Shown here: piece after piece, positions 9,525 through 48,264 of the stretch
How positions within the stretch are numbered: position 1 is the first letter of the stretch
Layout: each line of letters starts with the position of its first letter
Assembly (NCBI GenBank): GCA_963704465.1
Contig: OY969901.1
Coordinates: 1,053,331-1,117,330 of the forward strand
Origin: an uncultured bacterium
GTDB taxonomy: Bacteria > Babelota > Babeliae > Babelales > Vermiphilaceae
Direction of reading: 5' to 3'
Length of the DNA stretch: 64,000 nucleotides
Made by a program: the position numbers and the translations under genes
Notes under the pieces: model-generated
Databases searched by the model: none
What the model was told of the DNA's origin: nothing
What the model saw: only the letters and a program-made list of their open reading frames with translations

Positions 9525-10079
9525 TTAAATATCTTGATTAATGCTCGTTCTTAATGGCTGCGTAGAATTTAATGATTTCAGGGCTGCTCTATTTTTATTT
9601 TTATCAAAGTCGATCCATCCGTTTGCGCTTTTATCCAAACTCCCAATGCGATACACCGTATCATTTAGTTCATACAATGAGTAGTGCTTTTTGATACTTC
9701 CATATACCTCTGTATCAGAAGGTGCATAGGCAATACGATTCGTAGCATCAAATATTAACGTTGATTGCTTAAATAATGGCTCTTTTGCAATACGCTCATC
9801 TTCTGTATCGCGCTCGCCATCTTTTACCGGAAAACCGATATAATAACCAATAAAAGCATTACGGGGCAATCCAAGCTTTTTTTCTAGCGATGGATAAAAC
9901 AATTCATTCCATACAAGATATCCAATAATCGATGCGGAAACGCCTAACATACAGCCACCAACAATAAGCAAACCATCTCTCAACGAGCCATTAACGTTAT
10001 ACATGGCATGAGTTGTGTGAAAACCAAACATCACTGCAATAATAAGAAAAAACTTTTTTGCGCTATATAGAGAAAGCAT
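9525..10079 (-). CDS. Hypothetical membrane protein
   Basis: The track ORF begins at a TTG. I prefer the ATG at 10079 (MLSLYSAKKFFLIIAVMFGF...). A second hydrophobic segment is GLLIVGGCMLGVSASIIGYLVW. Confidence 0.5.
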   Translation of the reverse strand: MLSLYSAKKFFLIIAVMFGFHTTHAMYNVNGSLRDGLLIVGGCMLGVSASIIGYLVWNELFYPSLEKKLGLPRNAFIGYYIGFPVKDGERDTEDERIAKEPLFKQSTLIFDATNRIAYAPSDTEVYGSIKKHYSLYELNDTVYRIGSLDKSANGWIDFDKNKNRAALKSLNSTQPLRTSINQDI

Positions 10080-14414: not shown

Positions 14415-15722
14415 ATGAATCATGTAAGCGTATGTATCCAACTCTTTCTATCTTTTTATTTTTATTGCATTAATGGAAGCGATATGCCTCACCCCCATAT
14501 GTCACCTCGCTATGCCTTACTATCACCACGTGATAATACCATTAACACAATCGTACAAGAAGAATACATACCACTTTCATTTCTTACCCAGCTTATTGGT
14601 TATCGCAAAGCTCATACGTTATCAAAAATTTCTATTTCAGAAACAGCATATGAACTTTTTAAAAAATTATATCTGTGCCCCAAACAAATTCAAAATCATG
14701 TTCTCAATTTTATTGATTTTCGCAACAATACGACATTGCAAAAAATATATGCCCAGCAATATATAAAAAAAGAAATTGCTGTACAAGCTGATCCCCATTC
14801 TTTACCCATCGTTGCCATGCTTGATGATAACAATATTGTTGTCAGTAGTGTTTCCGAACCAATACAAATCTGGTCTTGCGATGAAAATAAAGTCATTTTT
14901 AAAAGCAACTACTTCTCAAAACGCCCCATGTGTTTTATACCACCATCACTCGTAGTAAGCGCAAGTCCCCGGGGAAATCTTAATATTGCAAAAAAAGAAA
15001 TAAATTCTAACACCTGGCTTGATCATAAAGTAATTCTCACCCAAGCACACTATGCTGCTCATGTTGAACTACTGTTCACACACAATGAATACGCTGTGGC
15101 TGGTTCTGTTTATGGCGATATTGATGTATATGATCTTGATAAAACTGCAATTATTATGCATAAAATGCATGGCCATGAAAACTCAATCTTTTGTGGCACC
15201 CAGCTATCACCGCATCTTTTTGCTACCGGTAGTAGCGATGAACATATACACGCATGGGATCTACGTAAAAAAGATACTGCGTTTTCTGTTTCTGACTTAG
15301 ATGCGGTGCCATTCAGCATAAAAATGTTCGATGATCACTCACTGCTTATCGGGTGTAGCCAGCAACCTGCTCTCAGAATGGTCGATCTCCGAAATACAGC
15401 AGCTTCCATTCCTATAAACATAGACGCATCTACCGTTTTTGACCTTGCAGTATTAGAAGATAAAACACTTGTTATATGCTCCAATGTAGTTGAGTTTTTT
15501 CATAAAAAATATGATTCTACCACCATTGAAAAGCTTCACGCTGTTCCAAACACCGAAAAAGTACTCAACATATCCTCATCGCACAATGGCTATATTGCCA
15601 TGGTAGACACCAAAAGCGCTATCTCTGTATTATTACCAATTACACAACCACTCTGCGCACGAGAACACTTAACCAGTGAAACTCTTATTGGAATTGCCCT
15701 TGATACAGAATCTACTGAATAG
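14415..15722 (+). CDS. WD40-repeat protein
   Basis: AAGGGGG SD-like sequence upstream. Canonical WD repeat HGHENSIFCGTQLSPHLFATGSSDEHIHAWDLR, plus further degenerate blades. Confidence 0.8.
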   Translation: MNHVSVCIQLFLSFYFYCINGSDMPHPHMSPRYALLSPRDNTINTIVQEEYIPLSFLTQLIGYRKAHTLSKISISETAYELFKKLYLCPKQIQNHVLNFIDFRNNTTLQKIYAQQYIKKEIAVQADPHSLPIVAMLDDNNIVVSSVSEPIQIWSCDENKVIFKSNYFSKRPMCFIPPSLVVSASPRGNLNIAKKEINSNTWLDHKVILTQAHYAAHVELLFTHNEYAVAGSVYGDIDVYDLDKTAIIMHKMHGHENSIFCGTQLSPHLFATGSSDEHIHAWDLRKKDTAFSVSDLDAVPFSIKMFDDHSLLIGCSQQPALRMVDLRNTAASIPINIDASTVFDLAVLEDKTLVICSNVVEFFHKKYDSTTIEKLHAVPNTEKVLNISSSHNGYIAMVDTKSAISVLLPITQPLCAREHLTSETLIGIALDTESTE

Positions 15723-35338: not shown

Positions 35339-35515
35339 TTATCCTTTATAGTACGAGGAGATTAAAACTCAGTATAAAAAAGATAGAAAGAAAGGCAATC
35401 AATTATCAATATAAAAACAAGATTCTATAAGAGTCCACATAAGAAACAGGGCCCCTCCTTCCGATTTTGCTTATTTTAAGGCACACTACGTATATAACCT
35501 TTATTGGAGCTTGCC

Positions 35516-36715
35516 ATGTCATTACTCCGCCATGTAGACCCTTATATCGCCGATCTGATCGCACAAGAAGATGCACGCATTGCATCAACCATCAATTTAA
35601 TCGCGTCAGAAAACTACCCTTCCCAGGCCGTACGCGAGGCGCAAGCATCAATTTTGACCTCAAAATATGCCGAAGGCTACCCCGGCAAGCGGTATTATGC
35701 AGGCTGTGTAGTTGCCGATGCGGTTGAACAATGCGCAATCGACCGTTGCAAAGAACTGTTTGGTGCAGAGCACGTAAACGTGCAGCCCCATGCAGGATGC
35801 CAGGCAAACATGGCAGTCTATCATGCGGTTTTAAAACCGGGTGACACAATCCTTGGCATGAGCCTTGCCGCCGGCGGACATTTGACCCATGGCCATCCCG
35901 TGAACTTTTCTGGCATTTACTATAAAAGCGTGCAGTATGGCGTTAATAAAGAAACTGAACTACTTGATTATGATGAAATCGAAACGCTCGCACAACTCCA
36001 TAAGCCAAAGCTGATAATTGTTGGCGCTTCAGCCTACTCTCGCACTATTGACTATCGCCGTATGCGAGAAATTGCTGACGCCGTTGATGCATACCTTCTT
36101 GCCGATATTGCCCATATTGCAGGGCTTATTGCAGCAAAACTCCATCCATCCCCTATGTCCTATGCCGATTTTGTCACCTCAACCACGCACAAAACATTAC
36201 GCGGCCCACGCGGCGGCTTGATTATGTGCAAAAAAGAGCATGCTGCGCTCATCGATAAAGCGATTATTCCCGGCACACAGGGCGGCCCATTCATTCATAC
36301 TATCGCCGCAAAAGCGGTTGCATTCCACGAAGCACGGCAGGCCGATTTTACAACCTATCAGCAGCAGGTGATCAACAATGCACAGGCAATGGCGCAACGG
36401 TTTCAAGAACTTGGCTATAGAATTGTAGCAAACGGTACCGATAATCATCTTTTTATCGTTGATTTACGAAATATTGGCATCACCGGCCACGAAGCACAAG
36501 AGATACTTGAACAGAATGGTATTATCGTCAGCAAAAGTTGCATTCCGTTTGATCCGGCAAAACCATGGGTTACGAGCGGTATTAGAATCGGTACCCCTGC
36601 CGTCACTACACAAGGCATGCTTGAAACAGATGTGCGTAAAATCGTCGATCGCATTGACAGTATCTTCCATGCAAAAGGCATAGAAAAGCAAAAGGTAGCT
36701 ACTCAGCAATTATAA
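35516..36715 (+). CDS. glyA: Serine hydroxymethyltransferase
   Basis: GGAG upstream of the ATG at 35516. LIASENY, and the PLP-lysine motif [14 protein letters not shown]. Confidence 0.95.
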
Positions 36716-36736
36716 AAACTTAAAAAAGGAATCTTC

Positions 36737-37201
36737 ATGAAGCTTTTATCTCTTACGGCATTAACTGCTTGTTTACTGTACACCACAATAAACTATGCAA
36801 GCGACATAGATAATGAACTTAATGCACCCACGTGTCCTCAATCAGCGTGTAAACCTCGGTATGTGGTATCACCTATTATAGGTACTACAATTGGGGGTAT
36901 TATTGGTAGTATAGCATATCTATCCACTGCACATGTAATCAAACCAAGCTGGACAGTATTTGTACCAGGAAAAGATTATGGCCACACAATGTGTTGGCCA
37001 AACGGCACCATAAACTACGATCCACAATGCCAAATATTTATGGATGAAAATAATAGATTAATAAAAGAATATATGGGTATTCTTATACCAGTTGGTGCAG
37101 TCCTCGCACCACTCACAACCTATCTCCACCGTAAAATATACAACTGGTACATACATCATGATGATGTTGAAAAGCAAAATATACTAATGCAAAAAATGTA
37201 A
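36737..37201 (+). CDS. Short secreted/membrane-module protein; its module is paralogous to the C-terminus of 37220..38374
   Basis: Leader MKLLSLTALTACLLYTTINYA. PIIGTTIGGIIGSIAYL...IKEYMGILIPVGAVLAPLTTYLHRKIYNW parallels APLIGAGVGAIIGGIVYA...VQKWMAIFVPLGAVLPPLTYRLSKTVYNW. Confidence 0.65.
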   Translation: MKLLSLTALTACLLYTTINYASDIDNELNAPTCPQSACKPRYVVSPIIGTTIGGIIGSIAYLSTAHVIKPSWTVFVPGKDYGHTMCWPNGTINYDPQCQIFMDENNRLIKEYMGILIPVGAVLAPLTTYLHRKIYNWYIHHDDVEKQNILMQKM

Positions 37202-37219
37202 CCCAAAAAAGCGAGCCCT

Positions 37220-38374
37220 ATGAAGCATACTATTTTCGCCCTTGCATGCATGGTTTCTATTGCATGTATTCCGGGCCATGCCGCTGATGCATACATACAA
37301 CTTGATACACACTCCGATGATGAGCATTCAGATGAAAAGCGCCCCACGATCACCATCAAAACACTCTATGATGGTGGCGTGAGAACCGCAAACCAGACCT
37401 TGAATCTTGCAGACCGAAAGCTCACCAGCACCCATGATTTACCTAAATTCCGCACTAAATTGCAGCTTGGTACCTTAACATTACTTAATACAAGCGATAA
37501 TCATCTGCAGTCTGATGATATTGGCACGGTGCTGCGCCATGCAGCTGCTTTGAAAACGCTCATTGCAACCGGGAACAAGGTTAAATCAGTAGAGCTACTT
37601 CCTGAGCATGATAATCTCGAAACGTTGTTTTTGGACAATAATAAAATCGGCGAATTCAAGGTAGCGCCGTTTTGCCAAAAATTTCCTAAATTACGGCAGC
37701 TGAACTTAGAGGATAATCCACTTCAATCAGATACTATCACGAGCATCACTGGCACTTACGCCGCTATGGAAGAGCTCTGGTTTGATCATCATGCGGCAAC
37801 ACCATCGGTTGCGATACGCTGCATCAAAGCATTTCCTAACCTCACCTGCGAGCTCGGGGCTGGAAGCCGCGCAGTGCAAAAATATTACTCCACAACCAAA
37901 CAACAATGGGATGATTGCAGTGATTGCACTGATTTTTGCACGCGATGCGAATGTTGTTCAGTATATATAGCAGCACCGCTTATAGGTGCCGGAGTCGGTG
38001 CTATAATCGGCGGCATTGTATATGCATGCACGATGCAAAAAGAACCATCTGATTGGATGTCTGATTTCAAATGCTACAAATATTATGCTGGTGAGCATAT
38101 GGGGGAGTGCGAACAAATACTACGTGAAAATCAAAAACTCGTACAAAAATGGATGGCTATCTTTGTACCCCTTGGCGCCGTATTACCACCACTCACCTAT
38201 CGCCTGAGTAAAACAGTCTATAACTGGTGCCGCACCAAGCCGCACGAACGCTATAAAACAGTCCACACACGCGAGATTCATGCTGAACCAACATTCCTAG
38301 ATCTTATTGATAACCTTGTTGAACCAGCACCGAATCAAGAAGATGAAGTTGATGGGCAAGAAGATGAAGTATAA
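37220..38374 (+). CDS. Leucine-rich-repeat protein with leader, C-terminal two-TM module and acidic QEDE tail
   Basis: Leader MKHTIFALACMVSIACIPGHA/AD. LRRs include LTLLNTSDNHLQSDDI, LKTLIATGNKVKSV, LETLFLDNNKIGEF and LRQLNLEDNPLQSD. Tail NQEDEVDGQEDEV. Confidence 0.8.
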   Translation: MKHTIFALACMVSIACIPGHAADAYIQLDTHSDDEHSDEKRPTITIKTLYDGGVRTANQTLNLADRKLTSTHDLPKFRTKLQLGTLTLLNTSDNHLQSDDIGTVLRHAAALKTLIATGNKVKSVELLPEHDNLETLFLDNNKIGEFKVAPFCQKFPKLRQLNLEDNPLQSDTITSITGTYAAMEELWFDHHAATPSVAIRCIKAFPNLTCELGAGSRAVQKYYSTTKQQWDDCSDCTDFCTRCECCSVYIAAPLIGAGVGAIIGGIVYACTMQKEPSDWMSDFKCYKYYAGEHMGECEQILRENQKLVQKWMAIFVPLGAVLPPLTYRLSKTVYNWCRTKPHERYKTVHTREIHAEPTFLDLIDNLVEPAPNQEDEVDGQEDEV

Positions 38375-38386
38375 AAAGGAACATTC

Positions 38387-38698
38387 ATGAAGCATATTGT
38401 TTTTGCTCTCGTATGCATGATTTCTATTGCATGCATTCCAAGCCGCGCAGCTGATCAACCATTTACTAAACGCCACACAAAAGCACATACCTTTTCTGAT
38501 AGTGATTATCTAAGAATCACCGCAAATAGCATCTATTGGGGTTTTGGTTTGGGTGCGATGTATGGAGAAAATCAGTGTATGGAACAAAGGTGCCCTTACG
38601 CTGTCTATTGTGCTCTAATCGGTGCAATATCAGCAGCTATAGCAACACCAGTATGCATGAAATTATATAGCAAAATAGTCGGTTACTATAAAGGATAA
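38387..38698 (+). CDS. Short secreted/membrane-module protein; its module is paralogous to the C-terminus of 38701..39720
   Basis: Leader MKHIVFALVCMISIACIPSRA/AD, nearly the same as that of 37220. AISAAIATPVCMKLYSKIVGYY parallels LSSWIATPVCIKLYSKIGGYY. Confidence 0.6.
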   Translation: MKHIVFALVCMISIACIPSRAADQPFTKRHTKAHTFSDSDYLRITANSIYWGFGLGAMYGENQCMEQRCPYAVYCALIGAISAAIATPVCMKLYSKIVGYYKG

Positions 38699-38700
38699 AG

Positions 38701-39720
38701 TTGGTGAAGGAGAACAGAAAGTATAGTTACATACTCATGATAAGCATGGCATTTTATTGCTCTGCTCAATCATCAGAAAAACGGCACCAAACTAATCAGT
38801 GGCTGGGTCACAAATCGGTTGAACAGTTGGTCAAGCAAGGCATTCGGCCTCAAAACAATGAACTCAACTGCCTGCACCAAAAACTAACCACGCTTACTGA
38901 TTTGCCAAAGTTCATACACACATGGCAACCATACAATCTCACAACAATGAACGTAAGCCATAATCATCTGCAAGATGAAAGCCTGATTACCGTTCTTAAA
39001 TGTGCACACAATCTTCAACACTTAGATTTTTCCCATAATGAAGTACATCAGCTCTGTACTATACCACCCCACGAACAGTTACAAAAACTAGTGCTTAATG
39101 ATAACCACATAAAAAAATTGTGCGTTAAAAAGGTGTTTGGTAGCTTAAAAAATCTTGTCTGGTGTTTGCTCAATAACAATCTTTTGAGCGATGACGATAT
39201 TACCGACAAGCAAGGATATTATCCAACTATTGAAACGATCTGGTTTGATCATACCGCGTTAAAAGAAAGCACCATACAAAGCTTCATAAAAATATTTCCC
39301 AACCTTTATTGCGAGCTTATGCCTGGTAACAATGCGATACAAAAACAGTATACGCAAAAAAAAGCACACTATGATATCTATATATCTAGCGACGATTACA
39401 TAAAATATACTGTTTACAGTTCTCTATTATGTGCAGGTTTAAGTGGATTTTATGGATTTACCCAATGCACACATTATTACGATCCCATTATTGCCTACGT
39501 AGGCTTGTCTGCATGTATGGGTATGCTATCTTCATGGATAGCAACACCAGTATGTATCAAGCTGTATAGCAAGATAGGTGGTTACTATATTACTGATCCT
39601 GCTTATCGTTATTACACAGAAAAAACACGCAACATACGGCCATATCCCTCCCTTTTAGGACATAGACATTCATATGAAGATGTGGAAGATCATGATCCCG
39701 GACAAGAAGACGAAGAATGA
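38701..39720 (+). CDS. Leucine-rich-repeat protein with C-terminal membrane module and acidic QEDE tail
   Basis: LRRs include LTTMNVSHNHLQDESL, LQHLDFSHNEVHQL, LQKLVLNDNHIKKL and LVWCLLNNNLLSDDDI. WFDHTALKESTIQSFIKIFPNLYCEL parallels WFDHHAATPSVAIRCIKAFPNLTCEL in 37220. Tail GQEDEE. The start codon is uncertain (TTG or GTG). Confidence 0.75.
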   Translation: MVKENRKYSYILMISMAFYCSAQSSEKRHQTNQWLGHKSVEQLVKQGIRPQNNELNCLHQKLTTLTDLPKFIHTWQPYNLTTMNVSHNHLQDESLITVLKCAHNLQHLDFSHNEVHQLCTIPPHEQLQKLVLNDNHIKKLCVKKVFGSLKNLVWCLLNNNLLSDDDITDKQGYYPTIETIWFDHTALKESTIQSFIKIFPNLYCELMPGNNAIQKQYTQKKAHYDIYISSDDYIKYTVYSSLLCAGLSGFYGFTQCTHYYDPIIAYVGLSACMGMLSSWIATPVCIKLYSKIGGYYITDPAYRYYTEKTRNIRPYPSLLGHRHSYEDVEDHDPGQEDEE

Positions 39721-39723
39721 TTT

Positions 39724-40365
39724 TTACTCAAGCACGAGCACAATGAGGGCACTGCAAATTGCAGCAAAGAAGCACCACACAGAGCCGAAAGCAAGATAAT
39801 ACCATATTTGCGCTGCACCAAACGCTAAAAGCACCAGCCAACCCATGGTTGATGCATAGGGGATGGTAGAAAGAAAGAGTGCGCCAGATGTTGCGAGCAA
39901 ATAAAATACAAGGCCCGCATAATACAATAGCGCACTAAATGGAAACTGGTTTGGTTGCTGATACGAAATATGATGATCAACCACTTCAACGGTAATTGGC
40001 CCCGCATAAAAATTAATACACGCAACAAGAGCAACAAATGCACCGGCAAGAATGGTACCAATGAGCCACTGCTTACGTTGTTGATTTTCTTCCAGATGCC
40101 ACAACACTATGGATAAATAGAGTGGCCACCAGACCGATGCAAAAAACAGATAGACATACACAGGAATAGAATAGGAAAGGGAGCTGTAATCACCACGCTC
40201 AATGGCAAGCCACACAAATCCTTCAAGCATCTGCTGAAGTGCAAAAAAACAGGGCACCGCTGCAATTAAACCAAACCGTGATCCGCCCGTTTTTTTAAGG
40301 CCCATAACACCAAGCACCGACAACACTGCCGCTGCACCAAAACTTGCCTGTGGAGAAAAACACAT
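39724..40365 (-). CDS. Hypothetical polytopic membrane protein
   Basis: 213 aa with about six hydrophobic segments. GAAGG SD-like sequence upstream. Confidence 0.6.
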   Translation of the reverse strand: MCFSPQASFGAAAVLSVLGVMGLKKTGGSRFGLIAAVPCFFALQQMLEGFVWLAIERGDYSSLSYSIPVYVYLFFASVWWPLYLSIVLWHLEENQQRKQWLIGTILAGAFVALVACINFYAGPITVEVVDHHISYQQPNQFPFSALLYYAGLVFYLLATSGALFLSTIPYASTMGWLVLLAFGAAQIWYYLAFGSVWCFFAAICSALIVLVLE

Positions 40366-40406: not shown

Positions 40407-41726
40407 TTATGATATAAACTGTTTGCAAGAAAGACAAGGGTTTATAACGCTATGCCGTGTATATGATGCATATACAATAGTTCGGTGCCACGCATGCGCT
40501 TGCACAACGGCACCACAATACATTAACTGCTGCAGATATGGCGGCGCCCACCGATCATTCACGAGTGCAACAATCGGAAGATCAGAATATGTATCGCCGG
40601 GCACGCGATTAAAAAAAAGTTCGGAACAAATATACGGTACACATGCCACATCACCAACATACATCACCGGCCGCGCGTTAGACGATGGCACTATTTCTGG
40701 CATGTCTGCAAAAAAAAGTTGTTTGAAGAAAGGATGCTGCAAAAACCATGGCAACCGCTCAATGAGTGGCATTGCATGCCGTTTATCGAACCGCTTTTGC
40801 ACCACACCATTGCGTAACCAATAACAACTATTCCGAAAATGCTCACCATCTTGATAAAAAGAACCAATGATATAATCGCAGGTTTTTCTTGTTGGCATAT
40901 AGTCTGCAAGCGTAGATTCAGCGCAGATTCTCCAGGGATATACGGATGATTCAGGAAAAAGCACTGCTGCAAGCTCAGGATTACGCGCATAGGCACAGGC
41001 AACATATTCAGCAACCACGTTACATACCGATGCATCATCTACGCACGAAATGATTGATTCTTGCACAATGCCCACATGAGCAAATGCATCACGCAGTTCA
41101 TTGTTTAGTATAGGCTCATACTTATAATTCATGAGCATCAACAGACCGATTACCATGATTACTCCATAATATTTTTGATACCCAAACGCACGCGCAATAA
41201 AGGCACACATGATGCAAAAAAAAAGCGTAGCGCCGCCAACACCAACCAACGAAACTACACACAAAAAAAAATTGTGCGTTGCACATGGAATCAAGGGATT
41301 TGCAAGCAGATACCCTTCCCACCGCCCACAAAAAAAGAAACATCCATCGGTTATAAAAAGCCAGTAGCACCATAACCATAACACCCTGAGCAAGAGCTGA
41401 TAGGTTTCTAATACATACCGTTCGCACAAAAAACCAATGCTCCACCAGAGAGCAGTAGCAGATGCCAAATAACAGATCAAAAAAATACCGGGTAGCCATG
41501 CATAAAAACCAGCAGCGGGTGCGAGCGTGATAACACCAGAAATAAGACCATGCATATGTATACCATACGCAACAAAACCCCACATAAAAGAATGGGTAAA
41601 AGAAAAGGAACTGAGCGTGAACAACATCACGGTACTGATCCACGTACCAAAAAAACAGGTTTGTGGGAACAGAAAAGAGATCCCATATAAAAATCCAGAT
41701 GCTATCACTAATACCATATCGCGCAT
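40407..41726 (-). CDS. lnt: Apolipoprotein N-acyltransferase-like (Lnt; CN-hydrolase domain with N-terminal TMs)
   Basis: The hydrophobic N-terminal half is followed by candidate E-K-C triad motifs LFPESSV, FDKRHAMPLIERLP and VPYICSELFF. Compare E. coli WPESA, NKHHLVPFGEFVP and ICYE. Confidence 0.7.
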   Translation of the reverse strand: MRDMVLVIASGFLYGISFLFPQTCFFGTWISTVMLFTLSSFSFTHSFMWGFVAYGIHMHGLISGVITLAPAAGFYAWLPGIFLICYLASATALWWSIGFLCERYVLETYQLLLRVLWLWCYWLFITDGCFFFCGRWEGYLLANPLIPCATHNFFLCVVSLVGVGGATLFFCIMCAFIARAFGYQKYYGVIMVIGLLMLMNYKYEPILNNELRDAFAHVGIVQESIISCVDDASVCNVVAEYVACAYARNPELAAVLFPESSVYPWRICAESTLADYMPTRKTCDYIIGSFYQDGEHFRNSCYWLRNGVVQKRFDKRHAMPLIERLPWFLQHPFFKQLFFADMPEIVPSSNARPVMYVGDVACVPYICSELFFNRVPGDTYSDLPIVALVNDRWAPPYLQQLMYCGAVVQAHAWHRTIVYASYTRHSVINPCLSCKQFIS

Positions 41727-44826: not shown

Positions 44827-45972
44827 ATGATGACCCCCCTGCACGGCTTTACCGCACTATTATTGCTCGCTGGCGCTTATAAACAACAAGAAATACTTCA
44901 AAAAGGAACTATTTTAGTTGCGTGCTCAAACCGCAACAAAAATAGTGTTGTTATGCACTTTTCAAACGAACTTTGGCAAAAAAAATACGCAAACCTTGCA
45001 TATGAGAACAAGCCAAACGTTACCACTCTTGATCTCGAGAAGGCAGTCAATCCAGGTAACCATATCATTGCAGACCTTTCTAAACCTATTACATATACAA
45101 AAAAATATAACGCCATTTATCTAGAAAGACCTTTGACCACTGTTAAAGGAAGCAGCCACCCAAATATTGTTAACATCTACTGTAAACACCTATTACCACT
45201 GCTCACAGAAGGATACTTCACTATTGAATGGGATCCTATGGTAGGAATGTTAGATAGCACACATAAAAATACTGCTAAGGCGGAATTGCATTTATGTTCA
45301 TATGTAAATCCATTTACTGGATATTTTAATATCGATTCTTGCCTTGAAATAACGAGCGCGGCACTTAAAAAAGGGCCATGTACGCCTACTCAAGATACAC
45401 AAGAAACCTTTTGTATAAAAAAAATACAGGAACTGCTCGGCTTTTATGCGGCAAATCAATCTGCTACCATTGAACAACTCCATGAAAGGCTCGAGTTAGA
45501 AATGAAATTAATACAAATCTCACAATTAGACAAATATAAACATTTAACACTGTGTACTGAAAAAAGTACTACAGAATCCATACAATCATTTAATGAATCC
45601 ACGCATCATGCGTTCCTTCTAAAAGATAACAACGGGACTTTCATATCCGATACGGCTATTCCTCTTACACAACCAGCCAAACCTATCAAAAAGAGTAACA
45701 GTATGGAATTAGCGCCATTTGAACAACAACTCACCCTTTTCCATTGTCTATGGTCCGATATTACCATACTCATGAATGGTCAACAGGCTATCGAATGCCT
45801 TCAAAAACTTGGTCTTAAAAACGTTACCTTATGGCGTGGCACAAGCCCCTATAACGGCCGCAAAAATGTGTGGCTCCTGCGGGGATATAAAAAATCCCGA
45901 GAAGATCTGATTCTTGATGAAACAGATGCAGAATTGCGTGCTCTGTTGCACAAGGGCTCATATAAACAATAA
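44827..45972 (+). CDS. Hypothetical protein
   Basis: 381-aa ORF with AAGGA upstream. I can assign no domain with confidence. Confidence 0.6.
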   Translation: MMTPLHGFTALLLLAGAYKQQEILQKGTILVACSNRNKNSVVMHFSNELWQKKYANLAYENKPNVTTLDLEKAVNPGNHIIADLSKPITYTKKYNAIYLERPLTTVKGSSHPNIVNIYCKHLLPLLTEGYFTIEWDPMVGMLDSTHKNTAKAELHLCSYVNPFTGYFNIDSCLEITSAALKKGPCTPTQDTQETFCIKKIQELLGFYAANQSATIEQLHERLELEMKLIQISQLDKYKHLTLCTEKSTTESIQSFNESTHHAFLLKDNNGTFISDTAIPLTQPAKPIKKSNSMELAPFEQQLTLFHCLWSDITILMNGQQAIECLQKLGLKNVTLWRGTSPYNGRKNVWLLRGYKKSREDLILDETDAELRALLHKGSYKQ

Positions 45973-46814: not shown

Positions 46815-47564
46815 GTGAACGATATTCTGCTGAGAATTTCTGAAAAAAAAGCAAAGCTCGATGCATTAAGACCATTACCCTCTGCGCTTGAACAGAATTT
46901 ATATGAGTGGTTCAGAATTGCCTTAACCTACTCCTCTAACGCGATAGAAGGCAATACCCTAACGCTTGCAGAAACAGCACAGGTAGTTGAAAAACAGATT
47001 ACCGTGGGTGGCAAAAGCATCACGGAACATCTTGAAGCCCGCAATCATGCAGCGGCCGTTGATTTTATAAAAGAACTGGCCACCACTAAAAAACGTAGCC
47101 AACTCAATCTCGATGATATTTTGACCATTCATGCCATTATTTTGCGCACGATCAACGATGCACAAGCCGGCCATTTGCGAACCGTAGCAGTCCGCGTTAT
47201 TGGCTCACCAGCTCCGTGCCCAAACTATCTCAAAGTGCCGCAACTCATGGATGAGCTCATAACATCTATGACCACTACTCAGAACCACATTGCAACCATT
47301 GCAGCACACGCCCACCTACAATTAGTGCTCATTCACCCATTTATTGATGGCAATGGGCGCACCGCACGCCTTCTTATGAACCTACTCTTACTGCAAGAAC
47401 ACTATCCGCTCGTGATTATCGACGCACAAGAGCGCACTCAATACATCAACGCCGTACAAAAAGCGGTCATGGGTGAAACTGATGATTACTATACGCTGGT
47501 ATACACCGCTATTGAGCACAGCCTTGATGAATATTTGAAGGCCGCGGAAGAGTCGCAATTGTAA
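46815..47564 (+). CDS. Fic-domain protein (AMPylase family) with N-terminal inhibitory-helix motif
   Basis: Fic motif HPFIDGNGRTARLL (HPFxxGNGRxxR). The upstream segment SNAIEG fits (S/T)xxxE(G/N). GTG start. Confidence 0.9.
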   Translation: MNDILLRISEKKAKLDALRPLPSALEQNLYEWFRIALTYSSNAIEGNTLTLAETAQVVEKQITVGGKSITEHLEARNHAAAVDFIKELATTKKRSQLNLDDILTIHAIILRTINDAQAGHLRTVAVRVIGSPAPCPNYLKVPQLMDELITSMTTTQNHIATIAAHAHLQLVLIHPFIDGNGRTARLLMNLLLLQEHYPLVIIDAQERTQYINAVQKAVMGETDDYYTLVYTAIEHSLDEYLKAAEESQL

Positions 47565-47896: not shown

Positions 47897-48264
47897 TGGT
47901 GGAGGCGATGGGAGTCGAACCCATGTCCGCATCAACATTGGCGCCAGGTACTCCATGTATAGTCTTTAATTATACAGCATGCATCACCGTAAAGACGCGA
48001 TATAATGCACACGATTGCTTAGTGATACTCGCTTACGCTTTGCAAAGCAATTGAATCGTACGCGCGAGTCCTATTTGGGTTTATACGAGGCTATGACACA
48101 TATAGGCATGCATCATAGACAAGAACTAATTGCTACTCGAGCAATTAGTTACGCGAAAACTGGTTCGCCGTTTATTGTTTTTGCCTGCGTGTTTTACGAG
48201 CCGACAAGCTTCGCTCGACATGCACCCATCGCGAACGCTAACCCGTCGAAACCGTTACGCCCCC
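47897..48264 (-). ncRNA. ssrA: tmRNA (SsrA)
   Basis: Read on the minus strand, the 5' end is GGGGGCGUAACGGUUUCGACGGG and the 3' end is GGACAUGGGUUCGACUCCCAUCGCCUCCACCA. The acceptor stem has a G3:U pair and the T-arm is AUGGG-UUCGACU-CCCAU. The candidate tag frame is GCA AAA ACA AUA AAC GGC GAA CCA GUU UUC GCG UAA. It lies immediately downstream of smpB. Confidence 0.9.

Follow-up and report, generated by a model that had tools for sequence, protein, structure and literature searches.

Short membrane proteins as probable truncated copies of predicted exported leucine-rich repeat proteins in the glyA-DUF6629 island of a Vermiphilaceae bacterium

The window analysed here is a stretch of 64,000 nucleotides (nt) from an uncultured Vermiphilaceae bacterium of the Babelota, called Dependentiae below (assembly GCA_963704465.1, contig OY969901.1, positions 1,053,331 to 1,117,330 of the forward strand), the contig having a GC content of about 41%. 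It contains a run of four packed plus-strand genes in which genes for two short membrane proteins alternate with genes for two leucine-rich repeat (LRR) proteins: short1 (36737..37201, 154 amino acids, aa), LRR1 (37220..38374, 384 aa), short2 (38387..38698, 103 aa) and LRR2 (38701..39720, 339 aa, with a TTG start and a GTG at 38704 also possible). A preliminary description of this DNA had placed four open reading frames (ORFs) here, and all of them are present in the ORF list. The run starts 21 nt after glyA (serine hydroxymethyltransferase, 35504..36715, plus strand, from the same list), the conserved left border of a variable island, and its internal gaps measure 18 nt (short1-LRR1), 12 nt (LRR1-short2) and 2 nt (short2-LRR2). 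The right border is a convergent gene for a DUF6629 membrane protein (39724..40365, minus strand; Pfam DUF6629, 52.6 bits). The shorts are lineage-specific truncated paralogs of the LRR proteins, and on balance we think it probable that the locus is a strain-specific elaboration of the glyA-DUF6629 island, the shorts being truncated copies that arose by tandem duplication and deletion and are accessory at most.

The locus DNA is an exact substring of a separate Logan assembly, ERR10755939, possibly from the same sample; hence, it is not peculiar to one assembly, and an assembly artefact was rejected. A promoter and terminator scan of the region gave no more sites than shuffled sequence. Integration of the island at a tRNA gene was also considered and rejected, since no tRNA lies nearby, apart from a tmRNA gene 8 kb off (47897-48264, minus strand; Rfam 147.5 bits), for which ARAGORN gives an unusually short tag peptide, GEPVFA*.

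The LRR solenoid is a protein-protein interaction domain, and both long proteins carry one. LRR1 passes the Pfam LRR_4 model (PF12799) with 34.7 bits against a cutoff of 27; LRR2 stays below it at 22.9 bits, yet is homologous to LRR1 (31% identity over 339 columns, E=3e-39 by BLASTP), so that the paralogy proposed for the two LRR bodies is borne out. In an AlphaFold2 model built from a five-sequence alignment, LRR1 residues 41-210 form six regularly spaced strands with a predicted local distance difference test (pLDDT) score of 81-93, whereas the hairpin and tail remain below 70 and, therefore, no structural inference is drawn for that part. Foldseek matches of the LRR model are generic LRR structures, and the profile matches among solved structures are all generic LRRs of 22-25 residues, such as internalin B and SDS22/PPP1R7 (among the best, with E about 1e-10 to 1e-13) and LGR4.

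The family was defined through an alignment of nine full-length members, which share the same order from N to C terminus: a Sec-like leader ending in A-A↓D/E, an acidic stretch, an LRR domain of about six repeats closing with WFDH…FPNLxCEL…GSRxVQKxY, an acidic, Cys-rich linker, and a hairpin composed of a glycine-zipper transmembrane helix (TM1), a loop of varied length and a second helix with Pro and Gly (TM2). A basic juxtamembrane segment then leads into a tail with the pattern T-x-P-x-x-R-Y…T-R-x-I…P-x-L-L and an acidic end, P-x-Q-E-D/E. In LRR1 these elements are a Sec-type leader at aa 1-22 (…HAA↓D), an LRR domain of six repeats at aa ~41-210 (nt 37340-37849), a Cys/acidic linker between the LRR domain and TM1, Gly-zipper TM1 at aa ~245-270 (nt 37952-38029), a 43-aa loop from TM1 to TM2, TM2 at aa ~307-330 (nt 38138-38209), both helices being placed by hydropathy, and a C-terminal part made of the basic juxtamembrane segment, the conserved tail and the acidic C terminus. 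In LRR2 the leader and LRR domain precede TM1 (aa ~236-254, nt 39406-39462), and a loop of 8 aa, set by direct reading after the hydropathy scan had mis-set TM1, connects it to TM2 (aa ~263-289, nt 39487-39567), followed by GYY, the conserved tail and the acidic end PGQEDEE. All of these lie on the plus strand.

Concerning the hairpin, the hydropathy scan gives two hydrophobic segments (Kyte-Doolittle, KD, 1.3-2.6), and all members show the same charge flanks, acidic before TM1 and basic after TM2. TM1 carries GxxxGxxxG in LRR1 (GAGVGAIIG) and short1 (GTTIGGIIG), with small-xxx-small variants in other members. Loop length is the variable element: of the nine full-length members, five have a loop of 8-13 aa, two have 29 aa, and LRR1 and its ortholog in the closest relative (L001, see below) have 39-43 aa, while that of short1 measures 50 aa. 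Read against the lipobox pattern [LVI][ASTVI][GAS]C at the leader end, the sequences gave SIAC in LRR1 and short2 and LTAC in short1, while VTPC in member P0006 and AFTC in P0009 do not fit; the downstream A-A-D/E, typical of signal peptidase I, is common to all members.

Neither the shorts nor the hairpin and tail region match any model in Pfam, NCBIfam or PADLOC. The earlier statement that no described system has this organisation is therefore in line with the searches, in which no family of these three collections was matched beyond LRR, and the full-length proteins represent an undescribed, clade-restricted architecture. The ratio of nonsynonymous to synonymous substitution rates (dN/dS) against L001 is 0.17 for LRR1 and 0.31 for LRR2, compared with 0.03-0.09 for glyA, efp, nusB, ndk and DUF6629 (glyA itself shows 93.7% aa identity and dN/dS 0.04), while the LRR1 ortholog P0002 is 77% identical to LRR1. 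The LRR genes are thus under purifying selection, yet evolve faster than their housekeeping neighbours.

Each short consists of a leader plus the membrane module of the LRR protein encoded immediately downstream, as had been proposed. Residues 33-137 of short1 align with 240-336 of LRR1 (32% identity, E=1e-12, BLASTP), and residues 19-101 of short2 with 210-296 of LRR2 (40% identity, E=2e-15, BLASTP). The significance of the module similarity also holds in a hidden Markov model (HMM) built from the nine full-length members only, with the shorts excluded, which recovers short1 with E=7e-13 and short2 with E=8e-6 among 1300 six-frame ORFs. No significant similarity was found between short1 and short2. 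In short1, a signal peptide (aa 1-22) is followed by Gly-zipper TM1 (aa ~42-65), a Cys-containing loop of ~50 aa and TM2 (aa ~110-131, ILIPVGAVLAPLT), then YNW. In short2, an LRR1-type signal peptide (aa 1-23) precedes an LRR2-type linker, a weak TM1 (aa ~42-60), a short loop and TM2 (aa ~70-95, …IATPVCMKLYSKIVGYY), with the stop two codons past GYY. Both shorts lack the LRR domain and also the conserved C-terminal tail, whose absence the preliminary description had overlooked.

Several observations bear on whether the shorts are still expressed. Both frames (154 and 103 codons) are intact despite 60-68% aa divergence from the parent module, both signal peptides are intact, and both genes have a canonical AAGGA Shine-Dalgarno (SD) site 7 nt upstream of the ATG, better than the site of LRR1 in this genome. 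Compared with LRR1, short1 has kept 11 of 14 family-conserved columns but 15 of 55 variable ones (Fisher p=7e-4); short2 shows a like trend that is non-significant (p=0.06). Intact ORFs, good SD sites, leaders and retained conserved residues indicate that the shorts are probably still made, and, as far as these sequence features tell, they are probably still genes. It should be noted that LRR1 in the window (37189-37219) has no canonical AAGGA, which L001 does have, the motif standing here before short1 and short2. With this site lost, the translation of LRR1 may rely on coupling with that of short1, which ends 18 nt before it.

These same features speak against regarding the short ORFs as inert debris, i.e. 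still-open leftovers of collapsed tandem duplications that yield no useful product. Frames of that length at such divergence, canonical AAGGA at the proper spacing together with intact signal peptides, and substitutions in short1 that avoid the family-conserved columns are not what such leftovers would lead one to expect, the short2 trend being non-significant as said. In its favour count the restriction of the shorts to one strain, the loss of the LRR domain as well as of the conserved tail, a TM1 in short2 that is only weakly hydrophobic (KD 0.54), and the decay of the family in relatives (a frameshift in L002 and a split gene in L089, described below). Taken together, we consider inert debris unlikely, and the preferred reading, truncated copies that are accessory at most, keeps them as probable genes.

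The distribution of the family was assessed with several searches. An exhaustive HMM search with the membrane module against 1.84 billion representative proteins, a library clustered at 50% identity, returned 10 proteins, 4 of them the window's own, and no further stand-alone hairpin proteins. Among 5.8 billion proteins, a word-indexed search that detects only relatives with common exact 5-residue words found two relatives of LRR1 only; with the cassette-1 module the sole match was short1 itself, a result of limited sensitivity that the exhaustive HMM search supersedes. No relative of the LRR family alignment was found in contigs of GTDB species representatives, so that neither the genome of the window nor those of its relatives belong to the set covered. 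Of two metagenome contig scans, the first returned none and the second only generic LRR proteins (30-35% identity over the repeats). A survey for further cassettes had been suggested, and within the 64-kb window no additional copy of the module exists.

Every family member with a readable context sits in one island, bordered by glyA on one side and the convergent DUF6629 gene on the other. The glyA ortholog matches Pfam SHMT in L001, L090 and the JGI 3300050821 contig, and DUF6629 adjoins the LRR gene or genes in L001, L002, L085-L088, L089, L090 and the same JGI contig. The gene order in L001, the closest relative (about 88% nt identity in the flanks), is glyA, LRR1, LRR2, higB-higA, DUF6629. 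It is glyA, LRR (frameshifted), higB-higA, DUF6629 in L002; glyA, LRR (375 aa), LRR (368 aa), DUF6629 in L085-L088; LRR1-type (cut by the contig end), LRR2-type (split), DUF6629 in L089; glyA, a 150-aa protein, HTH_37, LRR, hicA-hicB, DUF6629 in L090; glyA, HTH_37, LRR2-type, 78 aa, DUF6629 in the JGI contig; and …, LRR, 333-aa cut gene in the ERR12037363 contig. In none of these seven related loci does a gene stand between paired LRR genes or a short clearly beside any of them. Blastn blocks confirm that L001 lacks window positions 36744-37219 (short1) and 38375-38736 (short2); there, LRR2 (4383-5429) begins within the final 23 nt of LRR1.

In two relatives the LRR gene itself is interrupted. 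The L002 gene (163-1171) has TM2 and the tail in another frame, and the LRR2-type gene of L089 (297-1267) is split into ORFs of 156 and 192 aa; a sequencing error is possible in both.

Toxin-antitoxin pairs also occupy the island in relatives, none being found at the island of the window: Gp49/HigB with HTH_37/HigA, and HicA with a HicB-like protein (L001 5499-6255; L002 1232-1998; L090 9717-9974 and 11118-11755). These pairs come and go there, a further sign of recombination, and the island is a hot spot of gene gain and loss. Elsewhere in the window, an orphan gene for a HigA-like HTH_37 antitoxin (62478-62831, plus strand, 117 aa), with no Gp49/HigB toxin ORF beside it, shows about 70% nt identity to the higA that adjoins the LRR genes in L001 and L002.

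The gene order bears directly on the idea of a functional two-component system, in which the free hairpin would be a dedicated partner of the LRR protein (chaperone, co-receptor, competitor or insertion helper), acting through the membrane module. Such a partnership would fit the tight, operon-like array of four genes, the SD sites of the shorts, stronger than that of LRR1, the GxxxGxxxG zipper kept in TM1 of short1 and LRR1, the family-conserved residues kept by short1, and a 17-codon TM2 patch of short2 and LRR2 whose nucleotide differences are mostly synonymous; two separate truncations have, moreover, converged on one architecture. The closest relative and at least five more loci, however, have LRR genes without a short, and the profile search revealed no other stand-alone hairpin proteins.

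The L090 locus deserves separate mention. Its 150-aa protein (9261-9713, plus strand), encoded right after glyA, is placed and built like short1: it combines a leader and a strong GxxxGxxxGxxxG helix with a second TM, and its end is acidic and Cys-rich. It matches the family module only marginally (E=0.0035 among 1300 ORFs), BLASTP aligning TM2 only; it does not significantly resemble the LRR protein encoded beside it, and its sole match in the word-indexed search was itself. As a leader plus Gly-zipper protein at the post-glyA position it counts, weakly, for a partner system, while its unlikeness to the LRR neighbour and its want of homologs in that search count against. The proposal that short and long proteins form a partner system thus does not survive the comparison of the seven loci, L090 being a weak exception. 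Because relatives have LRR genes without shorts, the LRR proteins do not require a short as partner, and the pairing or competition between free and LRR-linked hairpins that had been suggested cannot be obligatory for the family. The module tree (below) also contradicts a duplicated short-plus-long cassette. A dedicated partner system is therefore improbable in our judgement, and the account of the shorts as strain-specific truncated copies is better examined through their origin.

The module tree places short1 as the sister of LRR1 and the L001 ortholog of LRR1 (68% bootstrap), and short2 as the sister of the window LRR2 (93%) within an LRR2-type clade (92%). The shorts are not nearest to each other; each joins the type of its neighbour, so that the notion of a duplicated two-gene cassette was rejected. 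Judging from the sequences compared, the LRR1/LRR2 paralogy is old and common to distant relatives, while the shorts are seen in this strain only. Each short would then have arisen as a tandem duplicate of the neighbouring gene, followed by internal deletion.

The junctions between the genes provide the details. A 38-nt junction repeat, U (stop, AAGGA, ATGAAGC), occurs three times on the plus strand. Copy 1 (36706..36743; repeat family D3) holds the glyA stop, the SD site AAGGA and ATGAAGC before short1, and is syntenic with the glyA-LRR1 junction of L001 (alignment to L001 3194-3258). Copy 2 (37189..37226) precedes LRR1 and is degenerate, with a weak SD and 63% identity to copy 1. Copy 3, together with a duplicated LRR1-type leader (38356..38455; families D2, 69 nt and 81%, and D3), forms the 5' untranslated region (UTR) and signal peptide of short2, and matches the same L001 junction in 26 of 29 nt upstream and 53 of 69 nt in the leader. 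The near-identity of the LRR1 and short2 leaders noted earlier is confirmed (18 of 23 aa, 56 of 69 nt), and so is the shuffling drawn from it, an LRR1-type leader having been placed on an LRR2-type module. Short2 is, on its sequence, a mosaic of the LRR1 5' UTR and leader on the LRR2 module.

A second repeat, O, corresponds in L001 to the place where the LRR1 3' end overlaps the LRR2 5' end. In the window it is present twice on the plus strand (family D4): intact as the LRR1 3' end (38334..38374, aligned to L001 4365-4405), and as a degenerate copy, O' (38688..38726, 68%), directly 3' of short2 (shuffle p about 0.003), where it now provides the short2 stop, an SD site and the LRR2 N terminus. 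The short2/LRR2 homology (repeat family D1: 94 nt, 70%, spacing 899 nt) ends exactly at the start of O'. As the two O copies are homologous, the ancestral state for short2 was most likely the L001-type gene overlap. We propose that a tandem duplication of ~0.9 kb, running from the LRR1/LRR2 overlap to just beyond LRR2 TM2, would have come first, and that a tandem LRR1 copy and a deletion would then have joined the LRR1 leader to the LRR2 module, giving short2.

For short1, the C-terminal HDDVEKQ resembles the LRR1 end EDEVDGQ (p about 0.014), and because this faint LRR1 C terminus is kept, short1 appears to be an LRR1 duplicate that has lost two internal segments. The direction of this event is less certain than for short2. 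Given 32-35% identity to LRR1, compared with 77% between LRR1 orthologs, and given its tree position, short1 may be older than the split between the window strain and L001; in that case, recombination between the U repeats on either side could have removed it from L001.

LRR2 has a composite history of its own. Against its L001 ortholog, the synonymous divergence (dS) is 1.69 in the module and tail and 0.40 in the N-terminal part, and in the corresponding region (window 39370-39720, L001 5057-5429) the L001 LRR2 module groups with the distant relative P0012. From the dS contrast and this grouping, the LRR2 3' part was probably replaced by recombination in one lineage.

Several points weigh against this account of recent truncated copies that are accessory at most. 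The shorts are 32-40% identical to the neighbouring modules, as opposed to 77% between LRR1 orthologs, so that an origin after speciation needs very fast change. The similarities between junction repeats are short and of modest significance (p about 0.003-0.014), and the history of short2, with two duplications plus a deletion, is a reconstruction. Two separate truncations with the same leader and hairpin result could mean selection for the product. Most relatives are represented by short metagenomic contigs, and shorts may lie elsewhere in those genomes; likewise, clustering at 50% identity would hide close paralogs in the representative library. Finally, with a leader and two spans both ends should lie outside, while the basic flank after TM2 suggests, by the positive-inside rule, a cytoplasmic tail.

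Within this account, the ancestral cargo of the island is one or two full-length LRR-hairpin genes. Their products would be exported through Sec and held in the membrane by the hairpin, and the LRR domain, possibly with the tail, would be displayed for binding to a host component at a host-facing membrane, which could belong to the bacterial envelope or derive from the host. The full-length family probably functions in host interaction, a role at the surface or facing the host membrane that was suggested at the outset and stays reasonable for an LRR protein with a Sec leader in a Dependentiae parasite. The shorts would be made as small hairpin proteins and inserted in the same membrane, where their likeliest effect, if any, would be co-assembly through the glycine zipper with the full-length neighbour, diluting or modulating it.

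A bolder version takes the shorts as newly evolved, selected subunits, whose co-assembling hairpins set the stoichiometry or valency of LRR display or act in a dominant-negative manner, with the family as a Sec-dependent analogue of the chlamydial Inc proteins. We regard this as speculative and improbable. If true, the anchor of a host-interaction protein would have become a separate regulatory gene in two independent events within a single strain, and hairpin-anchored proteins would decorate a host-facing membrane as the Inc proteins of Chlamydiae do.

The glycine zipper also raises the thought of a toxin/immunity-like pair, the hairpin of the LRR protein damaging membranes and the free hairpin neutralising it. 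Glycine zippers are typical of some permeabilising effectors with small cognate immunity proteins (PMC10434224, PMC5380434), and the island gathers toxin-antitoxin pairs in relatives; but the LRR-hairpin genes of relatives have no small partner, no PADLOC or NCBIfam match was obtained, purifying selection acts on the LRR genes, whose conserved tail does not look toxic, and the sequence holds no other sign of a delivery system. Such a pair is very hard to credit, and a defence or toxin-immunity system was rejected for want of a PADLOC match and of a conserved partner in relatives.

Other genes of the window may be listed here. It encodes a RING-finger protein (Prok-RING_4/zf-RING; 1379-2869, plus strand), a WD40 beta-propeller protein (14415-15722, plus strand), a Fic-domain protein (46815-47564, plus strand) and a Bro-N domain protein (61540-62358, minus strand), which fit the host-dependent Dependentiae lifestyle. 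The Lon protease of the window is 75% identical to that of a 'Candidatus Babeliales bacterium' metagenome-assembled genome, all remaining matches staying at 50% or less, in agreement with a Babeliales origin. Next to the island lies a gene for an Lnt-like (apolipoprotein N-acyltransferase) membrane protein (40407-41726, minus strand), with a weak NCBIfam match (43.5 bits against a cutoff of 427) and fast evolution (dN/dS 0.23 against L001). A 1.26-kb insertion relative to L001 (44717-45977) separates rpsA from a SpoU-type methyltransferase gene and contains an orphan ORF of 381 aa (44827-45972, plus strand) with no Pfam or NCBIfam match.

As to what the locus means, the Dependentiae phylum is widespread and, to our knowledge, its host-manipulation proteins are almost entirely uncharacterised. 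With this locus, a small family of predicted exported LRR proteins is defined that is restricted to one clade and marked by an unusual C-terminal hairpin and a conserved tail. Encoded in a recombination-prone island that exchanges toxin-antitoxin modules, it offers a concrete candidate for a membrane protein with which the phylum faces its hosts. The apparent two-gene cassette is not a conserved system; rather, the truncated copies provide a clear, datable case in which tandem duplication and deletion turn the anchor of a larger protein into new small membrane proteins. Both the orphan LRR-hairpin family and the budding of a free anchor from it on two occasions are of relevance to work on host interaction in Dependentiae.

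Among known systems, the glycine-zipper toxins share GxxxGxxxG in a membrane helix with the present proteins, which have no conserved adjacent small partner in relatives. Listeria internalins and other bacterial surface LRR proteins have LRRs of about 22-25 residues in common with them; however, the present proteins have no cap, no Ig-like inter-repeat region, no LPXTG or GW anchor and no lipobox that fits across the family, the hairpin being the would-be anchor. Membership among the internalins was rejected, as the LRR part alone matches and the sequences contain neither an LPXTG motif nor a GW module.

The chlamydial Inc proteins are alike in the bilobed domain (two hydrophobic helices with a loop of 8-13 aa in most members), the soluble domain and the setting in an intracellular parasite. 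They differ in that the present proteins have cleavable-looking Sec leaders, belong to another phylum, show no sequence similarity and carry the hairpin C-terminal to the soluble domain. Inc proteins occur only in Chlamydiae, where they are substrates of type III secretion and carry the corresponding signals at the N terminus (PMC3048545). Inc-family membership is ruled out by the different phylum, the Sec leader (A-x-A↓D/E) and the lack of homology; as regards insertion into a host-derived membrane, an analogy with the Inc proteins is possible. We know of no route for delivery into such a membrane in the Dependentiae phylum.

The nearest known kind are the eukaryote-like repeat proteins with signal peptides (ankyrin, LRR, WD40, F-box) found in Dependentiae and in further intracellular bacteria associated with protists, with the same type of organism, a Sec-type leader and a short LRR solenoid. 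Dependentiae are obligate protist parasites whose genomes encode many repeat proteins with signal peptides, presumed to act on the host (PMC4776705, PMC6561590); components of type II secretion and type IV pili have been reported for the phylum (PMC4776705). Fast evolution and restriction to a lineage are further points of likeness, and proteins of this kind have been proposed as host-interaction factors (PMC4776705, PMC6561590). It differs in its C-terminal two-helix hairpin and tail, not described in the cited literature, and in being confined to one syntenic island in one clade.

Concerning the shorts, tandem duplication followed by internal deletion, i.e. amplification and collapse, is an established source of truncated paralogs in bacterial genomes. 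The likeness lies in the direct junction repeats that bracket each short, the mosaic make-up, the occurrence in one lineage only, and the end of the short2/LRR2 homology at the duplicated junction. By comparison with such paralogs, however, the shorts are unusually diverged (32-40% aa identity) and still intact, and the one leader-plus-hairpin architecture found in both hints at retention by selection.

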